From Escherichia coli (GTDB taxonomy: Bacteria > Pseudomonadota > Gammaproteobacteria > Enterobacterales > Enterobacteriaceae), in assembly GCF_003334255.1 (NCBI RefSeq), contig NZ_QOWU01000076.1: a stretch of 16,778 nt of DNA. One strand, given 5' to 3'. Below the pieces are notes generated by a model. The model did not search any database. It was not told the DNA's origin and saw only the letters and a program-made list of their open reading frames with translations. Of the stretch, positions 9,797 to 9,810 are shown in pieces. Position 1 is the stretch's first letter; each line of letters starts with the position of its first letter. Made by a program: the position numbers and the translations under genes.

Positions 9797-9810
9797 TTAA
9801 TCCATATCAA
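9797..9810. promoter_or_regulatory. Candidate FNR-type site (TTAAT-N4-ATCAA) upstream of ynfE
   Basis: One mismatch to the TTGAT-N4-ATCAA consensus; about 106 bp upstream of the ynfE ATG. Anaerobic FNR-dependent expression of ynfE is established knowledge; this specific site is inference. Confidence 0.3.

Follow-up and report, generated by a model that had tools for sequence, protein, structure and literature searches.

The ynfE locus and its flanks

The window, by which we mean the whole stretch of 16,778 nucleotides analysed here, carries ynfE and ynfF, the first genes of the selenate reductase operon ynfEFGH of E. coli, together with a truncated ynfG and, upstream, ynfD in the same orientation (Table 1). 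The gene names follow from the 100 % identity of the region to annotated E. coli records, including K-12 MG1655, and the window as a whole is 99.99 % identical to E. coli strain G1/2. Homology to K-12 is restricted to positions 4692 to 16217 (99.97 % identity, with no difference in the promoter), and this 11.5-kb chromosomal segment bearing ynfE is flanked by prophages on both sides.

On the left, ynfG is interrupted in codon 28 by a lambdoid prophage of about 62 kb, which has inserted at a TTTAAAG core. As a consequence, ynfE-ynfF-ynfG' is separated from 'ynfG-ynfH-dmsD, whereas the K-12 ynfEFGH-dmsD operon is unsplit. The intact ynfG site is missing in about 89 of the 5325 genomes that have the region, and the exact prophage-ynfG junction is common to 19 complete genomes. 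At the opposite end of the segment, an intact integrase gene (431 aa) and an excisionase gene are found beside rspB (15058-16624, minus strand, and 16218-16778), where K-12 has only the intQ pseudogene.

Table 1. Coordinates of the features discussed in the text (numbering of the window)
Feature	Position	Strand	Description
Strong terminator	3079-3060		after ant
ant (antirepressor)	3084-3713	-	prophage end next to ynfG'; co-oriented with ynfE
RF02221 (sRNA-Xcc1) match	3754-3839	-	73 bits
Promoter-like site	3985-3956	-	ant region
ant fragment	3981-4247	-	prophage end; co-oriented with ynfE
RF02221 (sRNA-Xcc1) match	4288-4376	-	69 bits
Promoter-like site	4495-4466	-	ant region
Hairpin with short T run	4620-4581		17 bp; between ynfG' and the ant genes
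TTTAAAG core	4698-4692		prophage integration point
ynfG'	4693..4776	-	first 28 codons only; operon cut by the prophage at the TTTAAAG core
ynfF	4787..7210	-	second gene of the operon
ynfE	7271..9697	-	808 aa; first gene of the controlled operon
5' leader	9698..9762	-	about 66 nt; palindrome, ModE-like operator, Shine-Dalgarno
Shine-Dalgarno GGGAG	9708-9704	-	ynfE leader
ModE-like operator CAATATAT-AAACTTTT-ATATAACG	9742-9719	-	ynfE leader, centred at about +33
Perfect 12-bp palindrome TTAGCGCGCTAA	9759-9748	-	+5 to +16 of the ynfE leader
Putative transcription start (A)	9763..9763	-	7 nt after the -10 hexamer
Putative -10 hexamer TAGACT	9770..9775	-	4/6 to TATAAT; T-12, A-11 and T-7 present
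NarL/NarP-type 7-2-7 inverted repeat TAACCCA-AA-ATGGGTA	9774..9789	-	12/14 to TACYYMT-N2-AKRRGTA; one heptamer perfect
FNR box TTGATATGGATTAA	9797..9810	-	centred at -40.5 from the putative start; overlaps the -35 region, class II position
Hairpin	9857-9879	-	8 bp; 19 nt after the ynfD stop, then AUUUG
ynfD	9896-10201	-	gene upstream of ynfE
One-mismatch FNR pattern TTGAACAGGATCAA	14818-14831		9.8 bits; inside the 3' end of rspB
One-mismatch FNR pattern TTGATAAATATTAA	15043-15056		11.35 bits; 2 bp from the integrase stop codon

An FNR box in the ynfD-ynfE intergenic region

The 14-mer TTAATCCATATCAA of the plus strand, which reads TTGATATGGATTAA on the strand of ynfE, agrees with the FNR consensus TTGAT-N4-ATCAA at 9 of 10 positions. 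It is located in the 198-bp gap between ynfD and ynfE, 86 bp past the stop codon of the co-oriented ynfD, and its centre (9803.5) is followed 106.5 bp further downstream by the ATG of ynfE (9697). This match upstream of ynfE had been proposed in the initial annotation, whose sequence and coordinates turned out to be exact.

The number of such patterns across the window does not by itself distinguish the site. With up to one mismatch, the consensus is found three times in the 16.8 kb versus 1.09 expected, a count that is reached in 25 of 200 shuffles; on this basis alone, a claim of enrichment above chance fails, the excess not being significant. We also scored the window with a symmetrised weight matrix derived from 62 other sites located at ChIP-seq peaks in Table S6 of Myers et al. 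(2013), from which the ynfE site was excluded. The ynfE box is the top-scoring 14-mer of the window (12.7 bits) and falls inside the range of the bound sites (11.4-20.3 bits), albeit at its weak end (rank 56 of 62). Matches of this strength are expected about 0.41 times per 16.8 kb, and an intergenic region of 198 bp with the same composition would contain one with a probability of about 0.006. The matrix scan revealed no second FNR-like site in the gap. It is because of its position and its conservation, that is, its context and not the match alone, that the box stands far beyond chance.

The two other one-mismatch patterns of the window were considered as FNR sites and rejected. Both have lower matrix scores than the ynfE box, neither of them appears among the sites in part 1 of Table S6 of Myers et al. 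(2013), and they probably arose by chance.

Anatomy of the ynfE promoter

The first T of a -10-like TAGACT is 28.5 bp downstream of the centre of the box, which would place the latter at -40.5. A class II site is centred about 41.5 (+/- 4) bp upstream of the start, and the distance measured here from the putative start is within that interval. The same figure of -40.5, relative to a known start, is given in Table 1 of Myers et al. (2013), in agreement with a start at 9763. An unsuitable distance between box and start had been named in the initial annotation as the observation that would speak against its proposal; both our own placement and the published one indicate a suitable distance. The ynfE start is absent from the start-site list in the supplements of Kim et al. 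(2012).

No usable -35 hexamer is present at the ynfE promoter, as is typical of class II promoters that depend on an activator, and a generic scan for sigma-70 promoters and terminators called nothing on the ynfE strand around the site. An empty scan is expected of such a promoter and is uninformative. Between the FNR box and the -10 hexamer, an A/T-rich stretch leads to the NarL/NarP-type inverted repeat, which is centred near -18.5 and shares its final TA with the -10 hexamer. This repeat is likely to be the site of the published nitrate (NarL) repression; like the -10 hexamer and the exact start, it is assigned here from sequence and conservation.

Downstream of the putative start, the TTAGC part of the leader palindrome (+5 to +9) is more than 80 % conserved over 78 orthologous leaders. 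The TTAGC...GCTAA symmetry had raised the suspicion of a hairpin at the 5' end of the mRNA. This was rejected, as RNAalifold returned no consensus structure for 70 leaders; in E. coli, the leader folds weakly (-1.8 kcal/mol, z = +0.4), which leaves the hairpin reading unsupported in this species. Likewise, an Rfam search identified no known RNA family in the leader, such as a Moco riboswitch.

Upstream of the box, the hairpin that follows ynfD is stable (-13.9 kcal/mol, z = -4.3), and its stem is kept among E. coli strains while its loop varies. It is a probable ynfD terminator, insulating the ynfE promoter from ynfD transcription.

Conservation of the box and of the promoter layout

In an alignment of 11 Escherichia sequences (seven E. 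coli, namely K-12 and six diverse strains, E. albertii, E. whittamii and two cryptic-clade genomes), a 20-bp block that includes the FNR box, TCTATTGATATGGATTAATA, is invariant. The flank upstream of this block is unrelated in the non-coli species, e.g. E. albertii and E. whittamii. Conservation thus starts abruptly at the box, as would be expected if the box formed the upstream edge of the promoter. Among 5426 complete E. coli genomes, 3736 have the exact 42-mer around the box and a further 1300 have it with one mismatch.

A broader view was obtained by searching for orthologues with the first 120 residues of YnfE, keeping one genome per species. This yielded 80 loci from about 20 genera of Enterobacteriaceae, 77 of which were combined with K-12 into a set of 78 loci. 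When the 400 bp upstream of each ATG were scanned, the best FNR-matrix match was 93-111 bp away from it in 61 of these 78 loci, against 3.6 expected, and 31 of those 61 scored above the weakest ChIP-bound site. The arms TTGA...TAA are kept in 74 of the 78 orthologous promoters, with central bases that vary freely, and the T and A of the -10 hexamer are conserved in at least 90 % of the 78. In every one of these 74 orthologues (74/74), TTGA and the TA of the -10 are 35 or 36 bp apart, so that the class II geometry is itself conserved. In addition, 46 of the 74 have a perfect NarL heptamer between box and -10, in many cases within an evident 7-2-7 such as TACCCCA-TG-GTGGGTA in Kosakonia.

In orthologues of the Klebsiella/Raoultella type, the box scores only 3-7 bits (e.g. 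TTGACCAGGGATAA) and its downstream half-site is degraded. FNR control may be weaker in those loci and not universal.

Position 12 of the box (9799 in the window) is a case of its own. It is a T where the consensus ATCAA has a C, and this T is found in 74 of 74 orthologues from about 20 genera, with neighbours that vary. The consensus C at that position pairs with the key G of TTGAT, and a single transition would improve the FNR site. The constancy of the T suggests selection for a weak promoter-proximal half-site, which may keep FNR affinity low, or alternatively an overlapping second function.

Insertions of IS1 beside the ynfE promoter were also noticed, strain EC06 being among those concerned. 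In E. coli X14-3, where one end of the element lies 10 bp upstream of an intact FNR box, T-7 of the -10 has changed to C (TAGACC) and the annotation marks ynfE as frameshifted, which suggests that the locus is decaying in that strain.

Related promoters and a ModE-like operator in the leader

The closest relative is the promoter of K-12 ynfEFGH-dmsD (also named ynfEFGHI) itself, i.e. the same locus with the same 14-mer (Xu, Busby and Browning 2009, J Bacteriol 191:3172; Myers et al. 2013, PLoS Genet 9:e1003565). A second one is promoter P1 of dmsA in K-12, which belongs to the paralogous DMSO reductase operon and has a class II FNR site (at -41.5 in Table 1 of Myers et al. 2013, PMC3688515), NarL repression and ModE dependence. 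From the FNR box to the -10 (TTGATAnnGAnnAATAATT...GTA), the alignment of the two promoters has no gaps, and dmsA P1, like ynfE, has NarL-type heptamers between the box and the -10 (TACTCCT in dmsA). They differ in the downstream half-site, in which dmsA keeps the C (AACAA) whereas ynfE has lost it (ATTAA), and in the length of the leader, since the dmsA start is about 170 nt from the ATG by our own count versus 66 nt for ynfE.

A comparable arrangement was described in Enterobacter cloacae SLD1a-1, where selenate reduction is FNR-dependent and where the box ttgatgaggattaa was named as the FNR site upstream of srnA in srnABCD, the operon of the ynfE-orthologue selenate reductase. In Enterobacter loci, ttgatgaggattaa is found 100-103 bp upstream of the ATG and has the T at position 12 as in E. 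coli. By contrast, the spacer bases differ from those of E. coli, and Enterobacter leaders are devoid of the ModE-like motif.

This motif was recognised by comparison with the ModE core TATAT-N7-TAYAT within the inverted repeat CGnTATAT-N8-AYATAnCG. The ynfE leader matches the core on both strands and is the sole place in the window to do so (0.04 matches expected). The half ATATAACG fits the K-12 operators of modA, moaA and dmsA well, whereas the half CAATATAT has an A for a conserved G. The motif occupies the same position across Escherichia and in Citrobacter, whose version (CGCTATAG-N8-ATATAGCG) comes closer to a full palindrome; the other genera lack it. The ModE site of dmsA is located downstream of the FNR-dependent start (centred at about +51), and the ModE-like motif of ynfE also follows the putative start. 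While ModE control is published for dmsA, no paper linking ModE to ynfE was found in the literature searched. The ynfE leader may carry a functional and so far undescribed ModE operator, for which the motif is a candidate.

The prophage side of the junction

On the other side of the junction, two antirepressor genes lie 0.5-1.7 kb beyond ynfG'. Each of them is preceded by a full-length match to RF02221 (sRNA-Xcc1), located in its leader and scoring above the threshold of 53 bits (Table 1). In APSE phages, a gene with an ORF6N domain is reported to be preceded by a member of the sRNA-Xcc1 family, and the present matches suggest that RF02221 is a cis-acting leader of antirepressor-type genes. 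Promoter-like sites are also found in the ant region.

Read-through from the FNR-controlled promoter into the ant genes is conceivable from this arrangement, although it is speculation, and transcripts would first have to pass the 17-bp hairpin at 4620-4581. If it occurred under anaerobic, nitrate-free conditions, antirepressor expression could be raised and prophage induction coupled to oxygen and nitrate sensing, a scenario that we regard as unlikely.

Published evidence for FNR control of ynfE

FNR occupancy, fnr dependence, anaerobic induction and NarL repression of this promoter are all published. The exact TTGATATGGATTAA is listed for ynfE in Table S6 of Myers et al. (2013; PMC3688515), at coordinate 1655980, with a PatSer score of 13.01 and at an FNR ChIP-seq peak. 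The ChIP-seq and ChIP-chip data of that study both show an FNR peak at ynfE; the ChIP-seq peak centres (1,656,036 and 1,656,063) are 50-80 bp downstream of the site coordinate (1,655,980). In its Table 1, ynfEFGH-dmsD is assigned to category 1 (directly FNR-activated), with one site at -40.5 from the known start, and both expression and sigma-70 occupancy rise anaerobically. Indeed, sigma-70 occupancy is 27 aerobically versus 709 anaerobically (Table S2) and the aerobic/anaerobic expression ratio of ynfE is 0.027 (Table S12). The operon is FNR-activated in three of three transcriptome experiments that compared wild type with FNR- strains (Table S8). The anaerobic FNR control of the ynfE operon that had been advanced in the initial annotation is therefore borne out, at the very same 14-mer. 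The entry for previous direct evidence of FNR binding at ynfE is 'None' in Table 1 of Myers et al., which means that the direct evidence for binding rests on their ChIP-seq data.

According to papers that refer to Xu, Busby and Browning (2009) and Kang et al. (2005), the ynfE promoter requires FNR and is repressed by NarL; in one of these papers, a reporter driven by the promoter was again shown to be active only in the absence of both oxygen and nitrate. As for the neighbouring gene ynfD, one of the three transcriptome data sets has it as FNR-repressed (Myers et al. 2013, Table S8, PMC3688515), and our FNR-matrix scan found no FNR-like site upstream of it.

Discussion

We are highly confident that the 14-mer is the single FNR site of the ynfE promoter and that the latter is a class II FNR-dependent sigma-70 promoter, which is most likely shut off by nitrate through the 7-2-7 repeat. 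The work of Xu and colleagues in 2009 reportedly places the FNR site near -42.5. In the mechanism that we propose, dimeric [4Fe-4S]-FNR would bind TTGATATGGATTAA at -40.5 when oxygen is absent, over a -35 region without a good hexamer. There, it would recruit and activate RNA polymerase at the weak -10 TAGACT, so that transcription would proceed from near 9763 into ynfE-ynfF(-ynfGH-dmsD). In the presence of nitrate, phospho-NarL bound to the 7-2-7 repeat overlapping the -10 would block the promoter.

A match of this quality could in principle have arisen by chance in AT-rich intergenic DNA, with an anaerobic induction of ynfE that is indirect or exerted via another site. The overall pattern count (three versus 1.09 expected, reached in 25 of 200 shuffles) and the roughly 0.41 matrix matches expected per 16.8 kb would be compatible with such an origin. 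However, the intergenic region has no other FNR-like site, both the ChIP-seq peak and the fnr-dependent expression map to the ynfE promoter, and the arms are kept across genera together with their spacing to the -10 while flanking and spacer bases vary. We therefore hold a chance match to be very improbable. The conservation of these arms might instead be read as that of a promoter element, TTGA(T/C) being chiefly the -35 hexamer of an FNR-independent sigma-70 promoter, with a secondary resemblance to an FNR site. TTGATA indeed shares five of six positions with TTGACA, and Klebsiella, Raoultella and Kluyvera combine TTGACC with a degraded downstream half-site (3-9 bits). Yet no -10-like sequence is found 16-18 bp downstream of the E. 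coli TTGATA, where the sequence is CTTAACCCAA, and the promoter scan detected no such -35/-10 pair on the minus strand. The conserved TA at 35-36 bp (74/74) has the spacing of a class II activator and not that of a -35/-10 pair, and the downstream TAA arm is as well conserved as TTGA. With expression that is about 37-fold anaerobic and fnr-dependent (Myers et al. 2013), a promoter independent of FNR is highly unlikely.

Finally, the site might be bound by another protein with similar DNA recognition, such as CRP, instead of FNR. Several proteins of the CRP/FNR type exist in E. coli, and the inverted repeats bound by CRP and FNR are related, which speaks for considering this possibility. The half-sites TTGAT/TTAAT are nevertheless 4 bp apart, not 6 bp as in CRP sites, and have no GTGA core, and it is FNR that was reported to be enriched at the promoter by ChIP-seq and to be needed for its expression (Myers et al. 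2013). Recognition by CRP or a similar protein in place of FNR is thus extremely unlikely, and FNR acting from a class II position remains our interpretation of the 14-mer.

To conclude, this FNR site is a published one, and there is nothing new in the finding as stated. Its re-identification confirms that a genuine FNR target was recognised from the raw sequence. Besides, engineered gut E. coli already employ the ynfE promoter to sense anaerobic, low-nitrate conditions, and the tuning of such sensors could draw on the conserved layout, with its FNR box containing an invariably weak half-site, its NarL 7-2-7 across the -10 and, possibly, a ModE site in the leader. In the strain analysed here, the box no longer controls a complete reductase operon; it controls ynfE, ynfF and whatever lies past the prophage junction.
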